Shown here: positions 9,060 through 39,893 of the stretch, in pieces
How positions within the stretch are numbered: position 1 is the stretch's first letter
Layout: each line of letters opens with the position of its first letter
Source: an uncultured Lachnospiraceae bacterium
GTDB lineage: Bacteria; Bacillota; Clostridia; Lachnospirales; Lachnospiraceae
Direction of reading: 5' to 3'
NCBI GenBank assembly: GCA_947305245.1
Contig: CAMZDG010000005.1
Location: 26,891 to 90,890 of the forward strand
Length of the DNA stretch: 64,000 bases
The notes under the pieces: model-generated
Told to the model about the DNA's origin: nothing
Databases searched by the model: none
What the model saw: the letters and a program-made list of their open reading frames with translations, nothing else
Program-made: the position numbers and the translations under genes

Positions 9060-9148
9060 ATGGCAACGCATAAACTCACCCGAGCCGGGTTGTGACTATT
9101 GAAATAATGTGATCAGATTGACAATTGGTATTTGCAGAAAGGAAACAA

Positions 9149-10108
9149 ATGATAATTCGAGACTTTGAACCAAAATATACAGAGGAAGCAGCGGAAATTG
9201 CTCTTGACGTATATGATCATGAGAGAGCATTTACACAGGAACTTCCGGAAATATCAGACATTCCGATACTGAAACATTTATCCGGAAACGGCTTCGGTGT
9301 TGCAGCATTTGAAGGCGGAAAAATGGTCGGATTTCTTTGCAGTGTGGAACCATTTGAGAATGCTTTTCGTTCCACTGATGTGAGAGGAGTTTTTTCGCCC
9401 ATGGGTGCGAATGGCGCAGTTATGGAAAATCACGGCATGATTTATGCGGCATTGTATCAGGCTGCTGCAAAAAAGTGGGTAAAAGCCGGAGCGGTGTCAC
9501 ATGCAATTTGTTTATATGAACATGATGAGGAAGCTGCGCAGCAGCTTTTTCGGTATGGATTTGGCATGAGGTGTGTTGATGCCATTCGTCCGATGGAAAC
9601 AATCGATTGCGTTGTATGCAGCGGATATGAGTTTTTGGAATTGCCCAAGGAAGATTATGCATATGTTTATCCGTTGCATTTGGCACTGAATGAGCATTAC
9701 TGCTCCAGCCCCTTTTTTATGAACCGAAAACCAGACACACTGGAAGAGTTTTTGGATTTTTCGGAAAGGAATAAGGAACGTTACTTTGCAGCGAAGATAG
9801 GCGGAGAATTATGCGCTTATTTGGAAGTGTCAGATCAGGGTGAAACCTTCATTGCATCAGGGAATCTTTATCGTCATATCATGGGGGCATATTGTATGCC
9901 GGAACACAGGGGCAGGGGAGTATATCAGAACCTGTTGAATTTTGTGGTAAATACTTTGAAAACGGAAGGATATACCAGACTTGGAGTGGATTTTGAAAGT
10001 ATCAATCCGTCAGGCAGCGGGTTTTGGCTTAAGTTTTTTCATGCCTATACCAATAGCGTTGTGCGCAGGATAGATGATCGGATTATGCAGAGAGCTTCTC
10101 TGATATAA
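9149..10108 (+). CDS. Tandem GNAT-family acetyltransferase, 319 aa
   Basis: C-terminal GAYCMPEHRGRGV motif A; visibly more AT-rich than upstream genes; start reset to ATG 9149. Confidence 0.75.
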   Translation: MIIRDFEPKYTEEAAEIALDVYDHERAFTQELPEISDIPILKHLSGNGFGVAAFEGGKMVGFLCSVEPFENAFRSTDVRGVFSPMGANGAVMENHGMIYAALYQAAAKKWVKAGAVSHAICLYEHDEEAAQQLFRYGFGMRCVDAIRPMETIDCVVCSGYEFLELPKEDYAYVYPLHLALNEHYCSSPFFMNRKPDTLEEFLDFSERNKERYFAAKIGGELCAYLEVSDQGETFIASGNLYRHIMGAYCMPEHRGRGVYQNLLNFVVNTLKTEGYTRLGVDFESINPSGSGFWLKFFHAYTNSVVRRIDDRIMQRASLI

Positions 10109-10279
10109 TCCCATGAATGAAGAAGCAGCGGCTTATTTTTCGGGAGACAAAACCAAACAAGAAGTGATTGACGTGATTCAAAAGAGAGTACAATTGTATT
10201 TGGCTGAGGATTAGAGAACAGGTAAAATCTACTGCTTAGGGTATTGTACTCTTGATAAGAAAGACCAGGAGAAATAGGC

Positions 10280-10777
10280 ATGATGGAATTATTGACCAGA
10301 GATCTTATCCTCAGATCGCTTACCTCAGATGATCTAGACGAAATTGTCAGAATGTGGAATTATCCTGCGGGCGTGACACCGGAAGAGGCAGCTGGGGTCC
10401 TGAAAGGCATGCAGGATAATCTGAAAAAGAACAAGTCCGGAGCGATCTATCATTTATGCCTTGGCGTATTTGAAAAGAGCGATCCGAAGCGTGTGATCGG
10501 TTGGTGCGGGCTTGACGGGATCGCAGCCCCGGGGCAGACAGTTTTGTTTTACGTCATGGATGAAAAATATCGATGCAAAGGTTATGCGACGCAATGCGCC
10601 AAAGAGCTGCTCCGATACGCGTTTGAAGACATGGATTGTAGCAGCGTAGAAAGCGCGTGCGCCAAGGATAACATGGCTTCTTACCGCGTTATGGAAAAAG
10701 CAGGGATGAGACTGATCTCAAGGACAAAGCACGGCGGGTATAATTTTACGATGGCGAAAGAGGATTTTAAGAGCTGA
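10280..10777 (+). CDS. GNAT-family (RimJ/RimL-like) acetyltransferase
   Basis: YRCKGYATQCA motif A; DNMASYRVMEKAGM. Confidence 0.85.
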   Translation: MMELLTRDLILRSLTSDDLDEIVRMWNYPAGVTPEEAAGVLKGMQDNLKKNKSGAIYHLCLGVFEKSDPKRVIGWCGLDGIAAPGQTVLFYVMDEKYRCKGYATQCAKELLRYAFEDMDCSSVESACAKDNMASYRVMEKAGMRLISRTKHGGYNFTMAKEDFKS

Positions 10778-10795
10778 GGAATTGTCAGAGGGGGC

Positions 10796-11689
10796 TTGAG
10801 CATGGACATGAAAACATATTTGGCAGGATTTGATAAGGCGGAAAAGATAAAGCGTGGCATGGCCGGAGATGAGAAATATTACTGCCTGCGCGGCGGGGAG
10901 GAGTTTCTTCTGCGGATCGCTGACGGCGAAGACTATGAGGAAAAGAAAAGAGAATTTGAGCATTTGAAAAGGCTTGGCGATAAAGGCCTTCCGGTTCCGA
11001 AATGCATAGAATTTGCAAAGAGCGATGACAGCAGCAAGGTATTTACGTTACTGTCCTGGATCCCAGGAGAAGAAGCGGAAAAATTGATCCCGCAACTGAG
11101 TCCCAAAGAGCAATACGAACTTGGAAAGCAGGCAGGAGTTATTCTTCGGAAGATTCATGAGGCAGCGCCGATAACGGAGGATTCAAAGGGATGGTATGAA
11201 AGATACTTTGAAGTGATCACACCAAGGCTGGATGCCTATAAGAGCGAAGGAATCCCTTTCGACGGGTCGGATAAGATACGAAACTTTATTGAAGAAAACA
11301 AACACTTGATAAAGTCTCGCCCGCTTTGTCACCACCACGGGGATTATCATACGGGAAATCTGATCGTAAATGATGGAAAACTATGGGTGATCGATTGGCA
11401 TACCATGGACTTTGACAGCATCGGAGATCCCTGGTATGAGTTTAACAGGCTCGATACGAAATATCCGGAATTTGCAAAAGGACAGATTGACGCATATTTT
11501 GACGGCAAGGTGCCCGATGAGTTCTGGCGTTTGTTCGCTTTATATTTTTCCACAAGTGCGATCACTTCGATCGTCTGGGCAAAGTATTGGGCACCGGATA
11601 AGCTCGATGAGATCATGGGATTAAACCGAAGCGTTCTTAAACTGTTTGACAATATGGAGAATCCGATTCCAGCGTGGTATCGGAAATGA
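10796..11689 (+). CDS. APH/choline kinase-family phosphotransferase
   Basis: Intact Brenner motif HHGDYHTGN followed by VIDW and GDPWYEF. Confidence 0.85.
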   Translation: MSMDMKTYLAGFDKAEKIKRGMAGDEKYYCLRGGEEFLLRIADGEDYEEKKREFEHLKRLGDKGLPVPKCIEFAKSDDSSKVFTLLSWIPGEEAEKLIPQLSPKEQYELGKQAGVILRKIHEAAPITEDSKGWYERYFEVITPRLDAYKSEGIPFDGSDKIRNFIEENKHLIKSRPLCHHHGDYHTGNLIVNDGKLWVIDWHTMDFDSIGDPWYEFNRLDTKYPEFAKGQIDAYFDGKVPDEFWRLFALYFSTSAITSIVWAKYWAPDKLDEIMGLNRSVLKLFDNMENPIPAWYRK

Positions 11690-11741
11690 GAGAGTATGAG
11701 GGAGCGGCGACGAACTAATAATATATTTATGGGGGTATCAC

Positions 11742-12617
11742 ATGGAAAATACTATTTTGGAGTGGTTACTTGAGGAAGGGACGCCAGAGGTGAGACTTCG
11801 CACGTTAAAAGAGTTTCAAAAGCTTTCGGATCATGATGAGCGCATCAAGGATTGCAAGCAAAAGCTCCTGCAAAGCAAGACCTATGAGAGGGCTCTGAAA
11901 AAGCTGAAGAAGGACAAGCCCTGGGACAAATATGACGCCATCATGGCCTTTGCGGAATGGGGACTGACAAGGGACGATATCGGAAAAGAAATTGATGATG
12001 AAGTGTTTGGCTTGATCGAGAGCACGGGATTTAAGATGCTGTGCGGAGAGCCTCTTTTGCTAAGAAATCTGGTCAAGCTGGGGTATTATTCCGAAGAAAT
12101 CGTTAAGAATGAAATTGATTCCGTCCTGAAACTGATCAAGGAAGACGGCGGGTTTGGATGCATCAGCACCAACAAAAAGACGAACGATCCGAAAAAGCCT
12201 CATAAGAGCTGCGCCAGGCTCACGGTAGAATACCTGTTGTTGGCTGCGGAACTGTCGCTTCAGGGGCACAGACCGGAATGCGCGGATGCCCTGGTTCATT
12301 ATTTCACCAAGCGAAACATCTTCTACCGAACGGATGACATGAAAACACCCATGGTGGACGTGATGCTTAGCACGTTCTATCCACCTGATCCCATCAAGAT
12401 AGGCGCGCACATGATTGTTTATGCTCTAAGAGTACTGGGATGCGACCCTGGCTTAGATGCCATGCAGGCCGGGTACAAAGCATTGGATCAGCACAGGCTG
12501 ACTAACGGCAGGTTCGTGCTGACCGCGTCCAAAAGCGTACCCGCATTCAAGGCCGGGAACATTGGCGAAGAGAACAAATGGGTAACGCTTTACGCCTATA
12601 TGGCGCAAGAATCATGA
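11742..12617 (+). CDS. Hypothetical all-alpha protein (possibly prenyltransferase/squalene-cyclase-repeat-like)
   Basis: 291-aa ORF with RBS; EDGGFGC and LTNGRF resemble QW-type repeats; function not assignable. Confidence 0.5.
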   Translation: MENTILEWLLEEGTPEVRLRTLKEFQKLSDHDERIKDCKQKLLQSKTYERALKKLKKDKPWDKYDAIMAFAEWGLTRDDIGKEIDDEVFGLIESTGFKMLCGEPLLLRNLVKLGYYSEEIVKNEIDSVLKLIKEDGGFGCISTNKKTNDPKKPHKSCARLTVEYLLLAAELSLQGHRPECADALVHYFTKRNIFYRTDDMKTPMVDVMLSTFYPPDPIKIGAHMIVYALRVLGCDPGLDAMQAGYKALDQHRLTNGRFVLTASKSVPAFKAGNIGEENKWVTLYAYMAQES

Positions 12618-13126
12618 AAAATCATATTATACATCCTATTCCGCCGTTTTATGATGAGAATTCAAACATACTGATCCTGGGGAGTTTTCCTTCCGTGAAA
12701 TCGCGTGAGCAACTGTTTTTTTACGGACATCCGCAAAACAGGTTTTGGAAGGTGATCGCTTCGGTTTTTGAGACGGACAAGCCGGAAACGATCCCTGAAA
12801 AGAAGGCTTTTCTTACGGAGCATCACATTGCGCTGTGGGACGTGATCGGATCCTGTGACATTGAGGGTTCGTCGGATTCCAGTATTGAGAACGTCGTGGC
12901 AAATGATATCTCGCCCATCCTGAAAAAGGCCAAGATCAGAGGTGTCTTTGTGAATGGGAAAACGGCGGAGAAATATTATATCAAATATATGGAACCGAAA
13001 ACAGGCATCAAAGCAATCTGCTTGCCGTCCACCAGTCCCGCCAACGCTGCCTGGAGCGTGGAAAGGCTGGTAAAGCAATGGGGCAAGGAGATCGCCGGAG
13101 TGCTTTCGGATAGAAAATTCCTTTAG
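12614..13126 (+). CDS. DNA-deoxyinosine glycosylase (UDG superfamily), 170 aa
   Basis: LILGSFPSVKS, YGHPQNRFW, ALWDVI, NGK, LPSTSPAN. Confidence 0.9.
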   Translation: MKNHIIHPIPPFYDENSNILILGSFPSVKSREQLFFYGHPQNRFWKVIASVFETDKPETIPEKKAFLTEHHIALWDVIGSCDIEGSSDSSIENVVANDISPILKKAKIRGVFVNGKTAEKYYIKYMEPKTGIKAICLPSTSPANAAWSVERLVKQWGKEIAGVLSDRKFL

Positions 13127-13141
13127 AGCGGGAAAGGGGGC

Positions 13142-13963
13142 GTGGCCTTGAAATCGTTATATGTTTCGGACTTAGACGGTACGCTCCTCCGGAGTGATCA
13201 GAGAATTTCAGAATATACCAATCGCGTGATCAATGACCTGACGGAGCGGGGCATGTTTTTTTCCTATGCGACCGCGCGTTCCCTGATCACGGCGAAAAAG
13301 GTGACGAAGGGCTTAAATGCAAAGATCCCGCTGATCCTTTATAACGGTGCATTCATTATTGACAATGCCACCGGGGAGATCTTAAAGGCGAATTATTTCG
13401 AGAAGGCTTCCGTGAAAGAGCTCTTGGATCGGTTGTTTGATCATCAGATTTATCCCATCGTTTATGCCTATTTAGACGGTGCGGAGAAGTTTTCTTACGT
13501 GCCGGAGCTTAGCACCTCCGGCATGAAAAAGTTTACGGACAGCCGCGCGGGCGACGTCAGGGAGCATGCAGTCCCTGCGGCTGACGATCTTCGAAACGGT
13601 GACATTTTCTATCTGACCTGCATTGACGAGCCGGAAAAGCTGTACCCAATTTACGAACGCTACAAGGATCAATTTCACTGCGTCTATCAGAAAGACGTTT
13701 ACACGGGAGACCAGTGGCTTGAGATCATGCCTAAGGAGGCATCCAAGGCGAATGCCATCCGGCAGCTAAAGGAACTGTTTTCCTGCGACAGGGTGATCGC
13801 CTTTGGCGACGGGAAAAACGACATAGACATGTTCGAGATCGCCGATGAGACCTATGCCGTTTCCAACGCGCATGAGGCGCTGAAGGAGAAGGCCACGGGG
13901 ATCATTGGTTCCAATAATGAGGACGGCGTTGCAAAATGGCTGGAAGAACATGGAAAGGTATAG
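13142..13963 (+). CDS. Cof-type HAD-IIB hydrolase
   Basis: SDLDGTLL, YATARS, SKANA, FGDGKNDIDMF; GTG start. Confidence 0.92.
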   Translation: MALKSLYVSDLDGTLLRSDQRISEYTNRVINDLTERGMFFSYATARSLITAKKVTKGLNAKIPLILYNGAFIIDNATGEILKANYFEKASVKELLDRLFDHQIYPIVYAYLDGAEKFSYVPELSTSGMKKFTDSRAGDVREHAVPAADDLRNGDIFYLTCIDEPEKLYPIYERYKDQFHCVYQKDVYTGDQWLEIMPKEASKANAIRQLKELFSCDRVIAFGDGKNDIDMFEIADETYAVSNAHEALKEKATGIIGSNNEDGVAKWLEEHGKV

Positions 13964-14011
13964 TTTTGTTATAACGATTCTCTCTATATCACAATGCGTT
14001 TCATGCTGTTA

Positions 14012-14037
14012 TGATAAAATCGTAAAGCGCTTTACGA
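14012..14037 (+). promoter_or_regulatory. Extended -10 promoter with a perfect 18-bp LacI/CcpA-type palindrome
   Basis: TGaTAAAAT (14012-14020) abuts TCGTAAAGCGCTTTACGA (14020-14037). Confidence 0.75.
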
Positions 14038-14082
14038 AAGAAATCACTTGAAAACATTAGCATGGAAAAGGAGGATTGTTTT

Positions 14083-14793
14083 ATGAACAGAGATATTTTT
14101 ATCAGAAATTTGACGAAAGACAAAATAGAGATGAGCCCGAAAGGTAGGAATTCCAATGAGCTGACGCCGGAGGAATTTGAACAGTGCTATGAGAACTTCT
14201 TTGACATGATCTATGAGATCGCGGCCACGGATATTTCTTCATTATCTGGGTACGGGGAGTTTGACGAGAATAATCAGGCGCCGTATGAGACGCTGGAGGA
14301 CTTCATTCGCGACGAGATCATTCATGAGAAGACGGAAGGATATTGGAAGAACTGGACCCAGATGTTCGGAACCACGTTCCTTGAGAAGGAGTATTATTAT
14401 GAGATCGCGGAAAAGGCACTAAAATATGCGCCCTTCTGCGAAGGGAAGAGATTCCTTGTCAACAATAATACCTTCTTTTGCAACATGATCGTGGACGAGG
14501 CGGGCAAGGTACATCCTGCAGACTGGGGAAGAGCCGGGATCATGGATTATCTGATGGATTTTGCGATCCTTGACCTGAATAAGCCTTATCTCCTGGTACC
14601 TGAAAAGTTGTGGGACTACGCGAAAAAGAGAGGCATTCAGATTGAGAATTTCAAGGAGCGCTTCCTGTGCATGGCGTATTTTAAGGGAATTGCAACCTTA
14701 AGGTGGCATGCCTCCATCGATGATCTGGAATCCTGCGAGTCCATTGTCAGGTCCATCAATGCATTGGAAGGACGCATGTCGAAGCTGGCTTAA
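14083..14793 (+). CDS. APH-fold C-lobe-only protein resembling hygromycin B kinase; catalytic loop degenerate, 236 aa
   Basis: IAATDISSLSGYGEFD and RFLVNNNTFFCNMIV..ADWG; start ATG 14083 after AAGGAGG. Confidence 0.6.
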   Translation: MNRDIFIRNLTKDKIEMSPKGRNSNELTPEEFEQCYENFFDMIYEIAATDISSLSGYGEFDENNQAPYETLEDFIRDEIIHEKTEGYWKNWTQMFGTTFLEKEYYYEIAEKALKYAPFCEGKRFLVNNNTFFCNMIVDEAGKVHPADWGRAGIMDYLMDFAILDLNKPYLLVPEKLWDYAKKRGIQIENFKERFLCMAYFKGIATLRWHASIDDLESCESIVRSINALEGRMSKLA

Positions 14794-14812: not shown

Positions 14813-15493
14813 ATGAAATATGAAAATGCAAAGGACGTGCTTCCTGCGAGGCTTTTGGAGGAAGTGCAGAAATATGCGGAGGGCAAAGTGATCTATATCC
14901 CCAGAACCGAAAAAGGAAGGGGCTGGGGAGAGGCCTCCGGATATCGGGAAAAATTAAGGAAACGAAATGCGTTGATCTGCAGCCGTTACTTGGCTGGGCA
15001 GTCCATTATGGAAATCGCGGAAGAATTTTTTCTTTCGCCGGAAACCATAAAAAAGCTCGTTTATGGAAAGAAAATGGAGCTGCCTGCTTTCTCGCCGTCG
15101 GTTATGTCCGCGCGGCAGTATGCGGAAGCAGGCATGGGAGAAGAATGGGTGCGCAGTTACCTAAGCCTGTACCAGAAGACCGTGCCGGATACGGAGGAAT
15201 ACTTTATGTCGGAGCTGGTACGGATCCCGCTTCGGCTGATCGAGGCAGGTACTATTCACGCGATGGCCAAGGCGGGAGATCCCGGCGAAGCGGCAGAGTC
15301 AGATGAGAGCTTTTATGAGGTCCCGCTGATCGTGGTTTATGAGCAGGGACATTTTATGGTGCCGTTTCAACCATCCTACCTGGAAGGGCTGGTGAAAGAA
15401 AAAAGAAACGCGCATTATGCCTTCGTCTTTGCCCAAAATGAAGATTACGGGTATTTTTGGAATCATTACGGAAAACATTTTTCAAAGTGGTAA
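14813..15493 (+). CDS. CD3324/Mor-like HTH protein fused to a degenerate ParB-N-like domain, 226 aa
   Basis: MKYENAKDVLP..LLEEVQKYAEG..IYIP; second half QYAEAG..EEWV..YL and PLIVVY. Confidence 0.65.
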   Translation: MKYENAKDVLPARLLEEVQKYAEGKVIYIPRTEKGRGWGEASGYREKLRKRNALICSRYLAGQSIMEIAEEFFLSPETIKKLVYGKKMELPAFSPSVMSARQYAEAGMGEEWVRSYLSLYQKTVPDTEEYFMSELVRIPLRLIEAGTIHAMAKAGDPGEAAESDESFYEVPLIVVYEQGHFMVPFQPSYLEGLVKEKRNAHYAFVFAQNEDYGYFWNHYGKHFSKW

Positions 15494-15537: not shown

Positions 15538-15568
15538 TTGACTGTAAACCTTGTTGATACTGTATGGT
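15538..15568 (+). promoter_or_regulatory. MerR-type promoter with a 19-bp spacer
   Basis: TTGACT-N19-TATGGT directly upstream of the MerR-family gene. Confidence 0.6.
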
Positions 15569-15601
15569 TGCCCTATCAAGCAAAACAAGGAGGTATTTGC
15601 C

Positions 15602-16360
15602 ATGACAATCAAAGAAGTGGAAAAGCTCCTGGAGATTCCCAGGGCAACTGTAAGGTTTTATGAAAAAGAAGGATTGATCGATCCTGGCAGGGAAGAAAAC
15701 GGATATCGGGATTATTCGGAAGAAGACGTGGAAAAGCTGCGGAAGGTCATAATCCTTCGGAAAATTGGAATGTCGGTGGATGATGTCAGTGATATTTTTG
15801 ACGGGGCAAAAACCATGAGTGATGCGCTCGAGATCAACATCCTAAAGCTCCGTCAGCAAATGGAGGAATTAAAGGGCGCCATCAGGCTAAGTCAAAGGAT
15901 GAAGGAAGACGCGGCCACGATTTCTTCCATGGATGCCATCGCTTATTGGAATGTCATTGCGGAGGAAGAAAAGCAGGGAAATTCCTTTATGGACGTCGCG
16001 AAGGATATCGCCATGGTGGAAAAAGAGGTCGTAAAGGGCTATTTTGGAAAGCCCGAGGATTCTCCGGCCCGCTTTTTCAGAAACGTTGTAATCAATGTTT
16101 TCATGAGCGGCATCGTTGTGTGCATTTTGAAACGCTCGTGGGAGCTCAAGAATTTTAAGGATGGTCTGCTGGGCGTCGGAATCATCATGCTCCTTGAGAT
16201 CGTGCTATCTGTTCCCTTGTATTATCTTGGGAAGAGATACGAATTTATCCGGAAACATAGAACGGCCATCCTGATCATGATGGCGTTTATTCTGGTAGGC
16301 ATATTATTGATAATAGATCAATTTTTGGCCCATGGGGACGGGGTAATAGGTTCAAAATAG
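15602..16360 (+). CDS. MerR-family regulator with C-terminal TM segments, 252 aa
   Basis: MTIKEVEKLL..RATVRFYEKEGLI.P.REENGYRDY; hydrophobic C-terminus. Confidence 0.9.
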   Translation: MTIKEVEKLLEIPRATVRFYEKEGLIDPGREENGYRDYSEEDVEKLRKVIILRKIGMSVDDVSDIFDGAKTMSDALEINILKLRQQMEELKGAIRLSQRMKEDAATISSMDAIAYWNVIAEEEKQGNSFMDVAKDIAMVEKEVVKGYFGKPEDSPARFFRNVVINVFMSGIVVCILKRSWELKNFKDGLLGVGIIMLLEIVLSVPLYYLGKRYEFIRKHRTAILIMMAFILVGILLIIDQFLAHGDGVIGSK

Positions 16361-16382
16361 TGACCCACAAACCCCGTCCCCA
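16333..16382. repeat. REP-like hairpin element overlapping the MerR stop
   Basis: TGGGGACGGGGT (16333-16344) / ACCCCGTCCCCA (16371-16382) with an inner GGTTCA/TGACC stem. Confidence 0.6.
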
Positions 16383-16395
16383 AAGGTCCCAGGCT

Positions 16396-16422
16396 ACCCT
16401 TGGCGGGGTAGTCTTTTTTTTT
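16396..16422 (+). terminator. Rho-independent terminator
   Basis: GGCTACCC...GGGTAGTC followed by a long T-run. Confidence 0.75.
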
Positions 16423-16552
16423 GTCAATTGATATCACGGGCGGCAGTCTTCAATCTTTGCAGAAAATGAAATTTGTGATAGAATGATAAATGTAGATTTA
16501 TGCGGCGCAGGCCGATGGAATACATAAGACCTATGGAAAGAGGATCGAGGAT

Positions 16553-17641
16553 ATGAAAAAGAGATTCATTTCATTCATGATCGCATGCATGATGACGACA
16601 TTGTTATGCGCATGCGAAACAAATACGCGGGAGGAAAGTACAATGACGGAAAACATTGCGACGGAAAGTAGTGAGCAGGAAGAAAATGTTGGAGGGGTAA
16701 GCGAGGAGGACAAGGGCTCGTTCGCGACCGGCATCGCGACGGAGGATAGTTCGGAAAACTCTTCCGCCACGGAAGAGACGAGTGCGGAAGAAGCATTTGT
16801 CCTGACGGACGAGATCGAGGAGCGTTGTCCCATTGCCTTTACGGCGACACGCAAGGACGTAACATACGGGGAGTATACTCACGGGACATATCAGTCGACG
16901 ACCTGCGGGATGGAGCGAGGGTACTGTATTCTTCTTCCGGCAGATTATAGCATGGAAAAGAAGTATCCCGTGCTGTATCTCCTGCACGGGATCTTTGGAA
17001 ATGAATATTCCTTCTCGGGCGATTCGAGCAATAAGATCAAGGAAATTGTGGGGAACATGGCCGCGGAGGGTCTGATCGAGGAGACGATCATCGTTTGTCC
17101 CAACATGTATGCGACCACAGATCCCAAGCAACAGCCGGGGTTTGATGCGGAGAGCTGTCTGCCGTATGATAATTTTATCAATGATCTGGTAACCGATCTG
17201 ATGCCGCATATCGAGAAGGAATACTCGGTCCTTACCGGAAGGGAGAATACCTATTTGGGCGGTTTCTCCATGGGCGGGCGTGAGACGATCTTTATCGCAC
17301 TGCAAAAGCCTGAGCTGTTCGGCTATGTGTGTGCGATCTCTGCGGCGCCCGGGATCGTGGCGACGACGGACAAGTTTATGACGCATCCGGGACAGCTTGC
17401 GGAGGACGAAGTGAAGTTCGCGGAGGATGCAACCGTTCCCAACGTATTTATCCTTTGCTGTGGTACCAGGGATTCCGTCGTGGGAACCTATCCCAAGTCC
17501 TATCATGAATTGCTTGAGGCAAATGGCACGGACCATATTTGGTATGAGATCACGGGAGCGGATCATGACAACAATGCGATCAAGAGCGGACTGTATAATC
17601 TGTTCAAGCAGATCGCATATGACAAGGCAACGGATAAGTAA
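16553..17641 (+). CDS. Lipoprotein alpha/beta-hydrolase esterase (CE1, XynZ-esterase-like)
   Basis: Lipobox LLCAC; acidic linker; KYPVLYLLHG, GFSMGG nucleophile, GADHD. Confidence 0.88.
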   Translation: MKKRFISFMIACMMTTLLCACETNTREESTMTENIATESSEQEENVGGVSEEDKGSFATGIATEDSSENSSATEETSAEEAFVLTDEIEERCPIAFTATRKDVTYGEYTHGTYQSTTCGMERGYCILLPADYSMEKKYPVLYLLHGIFGNEYSFSGDSSNKIKEIVGNMAAEGLIEETIIVCPNMYATTDPKQQPGFDAESCLPYDNFINDLVTDLMPHIEKEYSVLTGRENTYLGGFSMGGRETIFIALQKPELFGYVCAISAAPGIVATTDKFMTHPGQLAEDEVKFAEDATVPNVFILCCGTRDSVVGTYPKSYHELLEANGTDHIWYEITGADHDNNAIKSGLYNLFKQIAYDKATDK

Positions 17642-39875: not shown

Positions 39876-39893
39876 TTGGACAAGCTTGTCCAA
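39876..39893. promoter_or_regulatory. Palindromic operator, copy 2
   Basis: Perfect palindrome TTGGACAAGCTTGTCCAA between the divergent XRE and CPBP genes. Confidence 0.7.

Follow-up and report, generated by a model that had tools for sequence, protein, structure and literature searches.

What can a kinase-like protein do once it has lost the half of its fold that binds ATP, and what controls its expression? This question is raised by a gene in a 64,000-nt stretch of contig CAMZDG010000005.1 (positions 26,891 to 90,890 of the forward strand) of the uncultured Lachnospiraceae assembly GCA_947305245.1. The whole of this stretch is referred to here as the window, and coordinates are counted from its first nucleotide. 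The gene (gene 1) is related to the hygromycin-B kinase gene APH(4)-Ia. It is very likely that it encodes a conserved, non-catalytic, N-lobe-less APH(4)-type protein, and that it belongs to an obligate two-gene cassette with a helix-turn-helix (HTH) protein (encoded by gene 2) and a promoter of its own. The best explanation overall, which we hold with slightly better than even confidence, is that the pseudoenzyme is the obligate partner of the HTH protein in a self-regulating cassette. The coding features of the cassette are as follows:

14083..14793, + strand: gene 1, encoding a 236-aa N-lobe-less, predicted catalytically dead APH(4)-like protein (pseudokinase C-lobe)
14068..14074, + strand: ribosome-binding site (RBS) AAGGAGG, read from the sequence, 8 nt 5' of ATG 14083
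14813..15493, + strand: gene 2, encoding the 226-aa partner; ATG 14813 lies 19 nt after the gene 1 stop

Start and fold of gene 1

Gene 1 was listed as an open reading frame (ORF) at 14062..14793, ending with the TAA stop at 14791-14793. ATG 14062 was ruled out as the start, as orthologues begin with MNR at an ATG that matches 14083; the latter is used as the working start. All 20 aligned homologues have the MNR start, and it falls at the ATG in 79/79 complete orthologous copies (these 79 copies, from 80 genome loci, are the basis of the conservation counts given below). An in-frame stop is found 1-37 codons 5' of the ATG in 78/80 loci; one of the remaining two runs off its contig and the other is open upstream for 392 codons. 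A preliminary description of this DNA had credited the gene with a strong RBS, which is present as AAGGAGG at 14068-14074, and RBSs of the GAAAGG/GGAGG type are kept among the orthologues.

The protein matches the NCBIfam model APH_4_Ia over residues 31-186 (profile positions 107-255 of 341; E-value: 2.4e-5), with a score (23.7 bits) far under the 725-bit cut-off. Against Pfam, no family is found at E <= 1 besides a chance MlaA row, and PF01636 is not matched. In a phmmer search of all PDB chains, gene 1 is most similar to a hygromycin-B 4-O-kinase (3w0r; E-value: 5.9e-5; query residues 25-187 on chain residues 101-256), which is the sole protein under an E-value of 1e-3. The preliminary description had aligned the protein with APH(4)-Ia from the hinge onward, and phmmer reproduces its segment pairs: gene 1 IAATDISSLSGYGEFD pairs with IAAADLSQTSGFGPFG, RFLVNNNTFFCN pairs with RHLVHADFGSAN and ADWG pairs with IDWS. 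The residue equivalences are D50 with D126, N127-N128-N129 with H196-A197-D198, N134 with N203 and D147 with D216, in a numbering of APH(4)-Ia that is consistent with the D198A, N202A and N203A titles of its PDB entries.

Structural comparison extends this kinship. The AlphaFold model of gene 1 (92-row alignment) has a predicted local distance difference test score (pLDDT) of 95.7 and a predicted template modelling score of 0.92. Its seven best Foldseek matches in the PDB are all APH(4)-Ia (E-values: 6.1e-9 to 1.3e-7; TMq 0.69-0.74), headed by 3w0r (E-value: 6.1e-9; TMq 0.73) and followed by LicA, APH(9), macrolide kinases, TvaE and CcrZ. VIA-align places residues 1-234 of the model on residues 57-302 of 3w0p/3w0m with Z 19.2 and a root-mean-square deviation (rmsd) of 3.2 A over 222 aligned residues; the next-best family has Z 15. 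Both programs find the kinase C-lobe with its helical substrate subdomain, and a Z value of 19.2 over 222 residues indicates that gene 1 corresponds to these two parts of an APH(4)-type kinase. The fold check against APH(4)-Ia that had been proposed thus came out in favour of the assignment. In the Protein Atlas, the clusters of gene 1 itself are named 'hypothetical protein' and are followed by APH clusters.

Loss of the N-lobe and of the catalytic residues

The preliminary description also held that the protein starts just before the hinge, without the N-lobe, and that NNN replaces the catalytic HxD; both observations stand. The match to APH(4)-Ia begins at residue 57 by structure and 101 by sequence, and ~74 N-terminal alignment columns of the ~305-aa relatives of gene 1 have no counterpart. 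The beta-sheet of the N-lobe, with its glycine-rich loop and ATP-binding Lys, is absent, leaving a short helix (residues 3-11) and a linker. In place of the catalytic H-x-D-x4-N motif, the phmmer alignment has N127-N128-N129 at H-x-D, and this NNN is invariant in 79/79 copies. The Asn equivalent to N203 (N134) is kept in 76/79 copies. D147-W148, which includes the metal-binding Asp of the DFG-equivalent 'IDW' motif, is present in 79/79 copies, as are D50 and R193, and D50, D147, D155, D159 and R193 of the retained substrate pocket are all conserved. Having lost the ATP-binding sheet and the catalytic His and Asp, gene 1 is predicted to be unable to phosphorylate.

The reading frame is nevertheless maintained. 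The ratio of nonsynonymous to synonymous substitution rates (dN/dS) is 0.014-0.113 in the 9 pairs computed, and such strong purifying selection argues that gene 1 is not a recent pseudogene; that explanation was rejected on these ratios and on the 79/79 intact copies. Gene 1 accordingly has the marks of a pseudokinase, with the fold kept, the catalytic residues lost and purifying selection acting on what is left, and its non-catalytic status, as first proposed, is upheld at the level of sequence. A split kinase with its N-lobe encoded next door was also rejected, since gene 2 has no likeness to a kinase N-lobe and the upstream genes vary.

The short form is itself a family. A first homologue search returned 452 proteins at E <= 0.001; among the best 120 of these, 119 have lengths of 234-265 aa and the other has 219 aa. 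Their identities are 74% or higher, and their sources are rumen Lachnospiraceae, Butyrivibrio and the like. A small number of homologues have been named 'hygromycin-B 4-O-kinase' automatically by one source and the others are 'hypothetical'. An exhaustive search of 1.84 billion representatives gave 344 proteins at E <= 1e-3, in which the short form is limited to two full-length 50%-identity clusters (P0114 and P0121). The next full-length matches, from a set of ~150 or more full-length relatives, are ~305-aa kinases, to whose residues ~75/100-300 the query aligns; these carry an N-lobe and the motif LVHGDFxxxN and are 19-32% identical to gene 1. Truncation and NNN are therefore conserved among the orthologues (full-length relatives being <= 32% identical), which are short rather than, as a pseudogene would require, all full length and active.

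The partner gene

Gene 2, which the preliminary description had overlooked, lies directly 3' of gene 1 on the same strand in 75/75 loci with at least 650 nt of room, with gaps of -4 to +112 nt between the two genes; the remaining 5 of the 80 loci end too soon after gene 1 for gene 2 to be scored. The flanking genes vary from locus to locus. Both genes are single-copy in this genome. Elsewhere, two copies of the cassette are found on different contigs in five metagenome-assembled genomes (MAGs), as judged by record titles (L007/L073, L027/L042, L035/L050, L043/L058 and L052/L059), and at one locus (L041) ORF clustering reveals another gene 1-like ORF, located downstream of the cassette and behind an MFS gene.

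Residues 3-83 of gene 2 belong to the CD3324 family (NCBIfam NF040785; E-value: 6.7e-28; 96.6 bits vs a cut-off of 65; profile positions 1-82/82), and an HTH domain is firmly predicted at the level of the family model. No paper on this family was found within the literature library searched. There are 392 homologues of gene 2, ~213-243 aa long among the matches listed. Across the family, the HTH (residues 1-85) is near-invariant, the middle and C-terminal segments are conserved, and the low-complexity linker between these two segments (~146-166) is variable. The AlphaFold model of gene 2 is mediocre (pLDDT 74). A VIA-wide search gave no match at Z >= 8. The best fold matches of the HTH are Mu C (9l0x_G; Z 5.3, rmsd 2.9, 46 aligned) and Mor (1rr7; Z 4.4), with many other HTH proteins within 1 Z unit of these two, and PHROGs has weak rows for a 'late transcriptional activator' (E-values: 0.018 and 0.045). 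A likeness of the HTH to Mor/C is probable.

The remainder of gene 2 points, less clearly, to another fold. Foldseek has no match under an E-value of 0.075, and the weak matches (E 0.075-1) are almost all of the ParB/Srx fold, namely PadC, sulfiredoxin, Noc, ParB, SbnI, KorB and SerK. VIA, a search independent of Foldseek, aligns the C-terminal part with sulfiredoxin (Z 5.1; 75 aligned, residues 133-212) and gene 2 with Osa (Z 4.5; 97 aligned, residues 90-226), although all VIA Z values for gene 2 are within the range that the tool flags as possibly common arrangements. The Protein Atlas gives leads only for the C-terminal part (0.92-0.93), one of which is a ParB cluster. A degenerate ParB/Srx-like fold at residues ~90-226 is probable; its nucleotide-binding motif is not preserved, as gene 2 reads PFQPS/PYQPxY where an aligned ParB-like family has DGNHR (GxxR type).

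A kinase-fold gene tightly coupled to an HTH gene also recalls toxin-antitoxin systems. In a toxin-antitoxin-like or defence-type selfish module, of which HipBA offers a parallel, one of the two proteins (HTH or kinase-like) would neutralize the other. The short gaps (-4 to +112 nt), the variable contexts, the five MAGs that have two copies by record titles and a cassette-specific promoter are what such a module would have. A competent kinase toxin would, however, need the N-lobe and catalytic Asp that gene 1 lacks, and the gene order is the reverse of that of HipBA. PADLOC finds nothing for gene 1 and, for gene 2, just an HTH model (E-value: 0.062), and conservation is very high (dN/dS down to 0.014), unlike that of fast-evolving conflict genes. 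We consider a selfish module very unlikely.

The predicted complex

The two proteins probably bind each other, as judged from their predicted complex. Its ipSAE is 0.85 (0.84, 0.85 and 0.85 in individual runs) vs 0.00 for the best of three controls, with a contact agreement of at least 92% and a partner pLDDT of at least 92. The ipSAE mark is reached by 116/157 solved complexes and 2/215 mismatched pairs, counts that apply here approximately, custom alignments having been used.

On gene 1, the predicted interface comprises the N-terminal stub (residues 2-5, 8 and 17-23), substrate-side loops and helices (85-90, 93-98 and 208-214), and residues 131, 136 and 146-150, including I136 and D147-W148. 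By alignment, this last group falls in the strand after the catalytic loop and in the loop of the metal-binding Asp; from kinase architecture, it would be the floor of the former nucleotide pocket. On gene 2, the interface comprises residues 59-84 (HTH helices are predicted at 65-72 and 76-84) and, in the putative ParB-like domain, residues 137-142, 179, 197-200 and 213-226. The near-invariant N-terminus of gene 1, MNRDIF, is outside the kinase core and inside the predicted interface. In gene 1, conservation is higher at interface residues than elsewhere (mean entropy 0.35 vs 0.73; 53% vs 28% invariant; one-sided Mann-Whitney p 8e-4, with related sequences counted as independent), and a weaker effect of the same kind is seen in gene 2 (entropy 0.85 vs 1.24; p 0.04, counted likewise).

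The cassette promoter

The regulatory features 5' of gene 1 are as follows:

13957..13989, + strand: upstream promoter block GGTATAG..GTTATAAC..TTCTnTCTAT, from the aligned upstream regions, with conservation in nearly all loci, and from nhmmer
13968..13975: dyad GTTATAAC, within the upstream promoter block
13988..14015, + strand: sigma-70-type promoter, from a consensus scan (9/12 matches, with TG)
14020..14037, no strand: 18-bp perfect palindrome TCGTAAAGCGCTTTACGA, just 3' of the -10
GTAAAGCGC element: the +1 element, a candidate DNA target, as is the GTTATAAC dyad

The promoter has a -35-like ATCACA (13988-13993), a 16-nt spacer and, as the preliminary description had it, an extended -10 (TG-n-TATGAT, 14007-14015). 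The upstream block abuts the -35 and, in this window, shares sequence with the final codons of an unrelated HAD gene. An ~85-bp block is common to the upstream regions of 79 distinct loci, though their upstream genes differ; it consists, in order, of TAGGTATAGTTTnGTTATAACGnTTCTnTCTAT, a -35-like TTGAA/TATGAA, an extended -10 (CTGnTAnnAT) and TGTAA(A)RGCGCY. The conserved part of the +1 element is the left half and core of the palindrome, GTAA(A)RGCGCY; the core of TCGTAAAGCGCTTTACGA is AAGCGCTT, with a central CG. The genome searched for further sites is a 3.34-Mb assembly (94.6% complete). With nhmmer, the whole promoter block has one significant site in it (E-value: 1.3e-14; next best 0.83), as does the upstream block alone (E-value: 7.6e-7; next best 5.1), and neither the palindrome (<= 1 mismatch), nor its core, nor the nhmmer profiles of both elements gave a second site in that genome. 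Conservation of the block despite differing upstream genes, together with its single genomic site, indicates that this regulatory DNA belongs to the cassette. The obvious candidate reader of the promoter would be the putative HTH protein of the cassette itself.

The palindrome had initially been described as a perfect LacI-type operator, and gene 1 as a sugar- or aminocyclitol-binding non-catalytic protein whose promoter is repressed there by a sugar-sensing LacI regulator. The 18-bp palindrome is real and perfect (TCGTAAAGCGCTTTACGA, 14020-14037), it has the central CG and AAGCGCTT core at the likely transcription start, and the substrate-side residues of APH(4) are conserved in gene 1 (D50 with D126, D147 with D216). 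The LacI operator consensus, however, has an outer TG/CA, which the palindrome lacks. Its symmetry is not conserved either: among 72 loci scored, 9/9 symmetric pairs are found here only, with 8/9 in the closest relatives (L001-L003) and mostly 3-6/9 elsewhere, and the half-sites are often unequally spaced among orthologues. The genome-wide scan that had been suggested returned this one site and no regulon. Neither the 9 ORFs scanned in the window nor the representatives of 29 neighbour families that recur include a LacI-family gene (this search covered those genes and not the rest of the genome), and the cassette changes its genomic context together with its promoter and its own HTH gene. Neither the LacI-type operator nor control by a LacI regulator is therefore supported, and the model as a whole is highly improbable. 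Perfect 18-bp palindromes are themselves not scarce: the genome has 30 (naive expectation 12.8) and the window has two, TCGTAAAGCGCTTTACGA and TTGGACAAGCTTGTCCAA, the latter at 39876-39893. The weight of TCGTAAAGCGCTTTACGA comes from its position and from the conservation of its left half and core, and not from rarity.

Alternatively, the palindrome could be a 5'-terminal hairpin in the mRNA, acting as a stabilizer or translational element, rather than a DNA operator. Its arms change complementarily between clades while their spacing varies, which fits a stem-loop better than a fixed dimer site, and in this window the minimum-energy fold predicted for the leader begins with the stem. The folded leaders of orthologues, however, have weak and inconsistent energies (between about 0 and -17 kcal/mol, in most cases above -6), and a 5' stem is absent from many of them. 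GGCGCC and AGCGCT cores would be unable to pair within a hairpin, an Rfam scan of 13800-14200 gave only a chance miRNA row (E-value: 8.8), and the element may lie outside the transcript, whose start is predicted only. An RNA hairpin is thus improbable, though less so than a LacI operator. A further pairing is seen in L035, L037, L040, L044, L049 and L051, where the left arm CATGTAA is complementary to a TTACATG/TTACGTG directly 5' of the RBS, 25-30 nt downstream; in L051, a U-G-compatible change occurs in this complementarity. No reading so far explains the pairing in this clade.

Proposed model

The model that we favour, of a pseudoenzyme as partner of an HTH protein in a self-regulating cassette, would work as follows. 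Genes 1 and 2 would be co-transcribed from the promoter that the cassette carries; of 5 sequencing runs listed from 2 studies, none is recorded as RNA. In the predicted complex, the partner would cover the N-terminal stub of the half-kinase, the floor of its former nucleotide pocket and its substrate-side loops 85-90 and 208-214, and the half-kinase would touch the HTH helices of the partner (62-84). By holding the HTH, the half-kinase could modulate its binding to DNA, as an anti-activator or anti-repressor. A ligand that fits the retained pocket (D50, D147, D155, D159 and R193) could then compete with the partner and switch the loop. The parts of this model differ in strength. That the half-kinase controls the binding of the HTH protein at the cassette promoter is a tentative proposal, to which we give somewhat less than even weight; that the pair is switched by a small molecule seated in the retained pocket, perhaps in the manner of autoinduced sequestration, is speculative and rather doubtful.

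Several points weigh against the model. The complex score is the confidence of the prediction program itself, which supports binding without showing it, and the interface p-values are overstated by the treatment of related sequences as independent. We infer the step in which the HTH binds the cassette promoter, whether at the upstream dyad, the +1 element or both. The arms of the +1 element vary (TGTA/TACA, CGTA/TACG and GTCA/TGAC, with variable spacing) and the recognition helix of the HTH is invariant, a combination that poorly fits an HTH simply reading the arms of the palindrome. The ParB/Srx scores of gene 2 are weak (Foldseek E >= 0.075; VIA Z <= 5.1; hhalign E 0.0065, probability 5.8%). 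Finally, a pair that regulates only itself would still need an output.

Full-length relatives and possible origin

Among 702 genomes searched, full-length relatives of gene 1 were found in 4 loci (L081, L082, L095 and L096), and an HTH partner gene of the gene 2 type is absent from all 4. In L082, a genome of the same order, an active-looking 301-aa kinase (RYLVHGDFHLGN; L082:1031-2385) overlaps by 4 nt the end of a gene for a ParB-like protein (150-179 aa; DGNHR motif; phrog_1033, E-value: 3.4e-6). The relative in L081 (L081:273-2424), just 3' of a radical-SAM gene, has HSG in place of HGD (LIHSGFCGGN), so that the catalytic Asp may have been lost here a second time, independently. Neither L095 nor L096 has a ParB-like neighbour.

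The ParB-like family (A6) is collinear with residues 94-211 of gene 2 (hhalign E-value: 0.0065, probability 5.8%, 104 columns), and the gene 2 profile touches a Paenibacillus ParB-like member at an E-value of 4.3e-4 in a tiny search set. From this one locus and weak profile scores, it may be that the cassette descends from an enzyme pair like that in L082, which we regard as a lead. Kinase/ParB-like pairing as a rule was rejected, being seen in 1/4 kinase loci and 1/11 ParB-like loci; no such kinase is present within the available flanks of the 10 further ParB-like loci, of which at least two are duplicates. In Paenibacillus sp. RC67 (L090:616-2944), a lone 88-aa CD3324-family HTH gene (E-value against the gene 2 profile: 4.4e-27) and an A6 ParB-like gene on the opposite strand are 1.6 kb apart, with one gene between. 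The two halves of gene 2 are thus found apart at this locus, which may be coincidence.

Another reading is a composite enzyme, in which the ParB/Srx-like domain of gene 2 docks in the place of the N-lobe and supplies nucleotide binding to a split phosphotransferase. Proteins of the ParB/Srx fold bind nucleotides, and there are kinases among them (the weak matches of gene 2 include SerK, 5x0b, and SbnI). The predicted interface includes I136 and D147-W148 of the former pocket floor, and in L082 the full-length relative shows translational coupling to a ParB-like protein whose DGNHR is intact. The catalytic Asp, however, is Asn in 79/79 copies of gene 1, gene 2 reads PFQPS/PYQP where its relatives have DGNHR, and the adjacency occurs in only 1/4 kinase loci and 1/11 ParB-like loci (at least two of the 11 duplicated). 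A composite enzyme is extremely improbable. A bolder version of the favoured model is that two pseudoenzymes, possibly from a kinase and ParB-like pair as in L082, have been joined as a transcription switch: the ParB-like domain would fill the place of the N-lobe, the half-kinase would clamp a Mor/C-type HTH and a ligand would open or close the cassette. We consider this version unlikely, although, if true, transcription would here be controlled by a ligand through a new architecture, made out of a wrecked enzyme of the antibiotic-kinase type.

Gene neighbourhood and significance

In the window, the cassette sits in a run of small genes of detoxification or resistance type (9125-13963 and 15551-17641):

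9125-10108 and 10280-10777: two GNAT acetyltransferases
10796-11689: full-length APH with an intact HHHGDYHTGN (PF01636; E-value: 4.8e-29)
11742-12617: 291-aa protein without a Pfam match
between 12617 and the cassette (run 9125-13963): UDG-superfamily protein, then a Cof-type HAD hydrolase
15551-16360: MerR regulator with a membrane tail
16553-17641: esterase-like ORF, read from the sequence alone

The 29 neighbour families that recur among loci include ABC, MatE and MFS exporters, GNATs, APHs, a beta-lactamase-like protein, methyltransferases, a NUDIX hydrolase and an AraC-GyrI regulator.

This neighbourhood bears on autoinduced sequestration, of which the TipAL/TipAS and AlbA modules are examples. 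Here, the half-kinase would bind an antibiotic-like molecule without modifying it, thereby freeing the HTH protein and raising expression of the cassette; the compound would be mopped up by the protein itself, and no other target gene would be needed. Promoter elements unique to the cassette agree with this, as do substrate-side residues that are common to active relatives and kept though catalysis is lost. The predicted partner interface overlaps the substrate cleft, such that ligand and partner could compete. The recurrent neighbours are of detoxification or resistance type, and two GNATs, a full-length APH, a HAD hydrolase and a MerR regulator are nearby in the window. The argument from neighbours is weak, however, because such genes are abundant in these genomes, and it is costly, and rare, for a cytoplasmic protein to sequester a compound stoichiometrically. 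Sequestration is therefore unlikely, though clearly less so than a LacI operator, an RNA hairpin, a selfish module or a composite enzyme. If the favoured pairing of pseudoenzyme and HTH protein is indeed switched by a ligand, a fold of resistance-type enzymes would have been recycled as a sensor in a compact module of two proteins and one promoter.

Bacterial pseudokinases are far less charted than eukaryotic ones. The gene 1 family has no Pfam model and consists of a C-lobe only, and few accessory genes in rumen Lachnospiraceae are as conserved. For annotation, the consequence would be that resistance screens naming this family an aminoglycoside kinase are calling a protein that is predicted to be unable to be one.

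Comparison with known systems

The best match of gene 1 in both sequence and fold is APH(4)-Ia (PDB 3TYK and 3W0M-3W0S), of which it keeps the equivalents of D126, N203 and D216. The first ~56 (structure) to ~100 (sequence) residues of APH(4)-Ia have no counterpart, however, and H196 and D198 are Asn in gene 1. Identity is only 15-18%, and gene 1 falls under the Pfam APH and NCBIfam thresholds. Gene 1, by contrast, always has an HTH partner gene. No description of an N-lobe-less APH-type pseudokinase was found within the literature library searched. The nearest relatives are the ~305-aa APH-like kinases (P0128, P0131, P0133 and others; L081, L082, L095 and L096), with 19-32% identity over the whole C-lobe. 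They share with gene 1 the invariant G21, D50, G56, G58, W91, R123, D147, W148, D155, D159 and R193, but differ in having an N-lobe and mostly LVHGD...N (HSG in L081), and in having no HTH partner in 4 loci.

The HTH of gene 2 finds its best fold matches in Mor and C of phage Mu, to which gene 2 adds a domain of ~140 residues and a pseudokinase partner. The dyad to which Mor and C bind lies just upstream of the -35, and the conserved GTTATAAC dyad block sits at a comparable position in the cassette promoter. The likeness of gene 2 to ParB/Srx proteins (sulfiredoxin, PadC, Noc, KorB, Osa, SerK and SbnI) is weak and their nucleotide-binding motif is absent; compared with canonical ParB, the domain order is reversed, with the HTH first. 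HipBA and HipBST likewise combine a protein of kinase fold with an HTH protein that is autoregulating, and the HipBST kinase is split. The cassette differs from these systems in the kinase fold family, in its reversed gene order and in its predicted catalytically dead protein.

The closest parallel for a non-catalytic APH fold is provided by LanX, RosX and TvaE of AviCys pathways for peptides that are made ribosomally and modified post-translationally (RiPPs). These are described as APH-like kinase folds without catalytic residues or the Mg-chelating motif, which bind without phosphotransfer (PMC12291118); the whole fold is kept, and what they bind is peptide substrates in biosynthetic clusters. 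TvaE (8jsu_B) ranks 13th among the Foldseek matches of gene 1 (E-value: 3.7e-4). Gene 1 differs from this group in that it has no RiPP context, retains the Mg-binding Asp, has no N-lobe and has a partner predicted to be of the DNA-binding type. Whereas the known non-catalytic APH-fold proteins of the LanX/TvaE type keep the whole fold, gene 1 is a C-lobe only, accompanied by an HTH partner and a promoter of its own.

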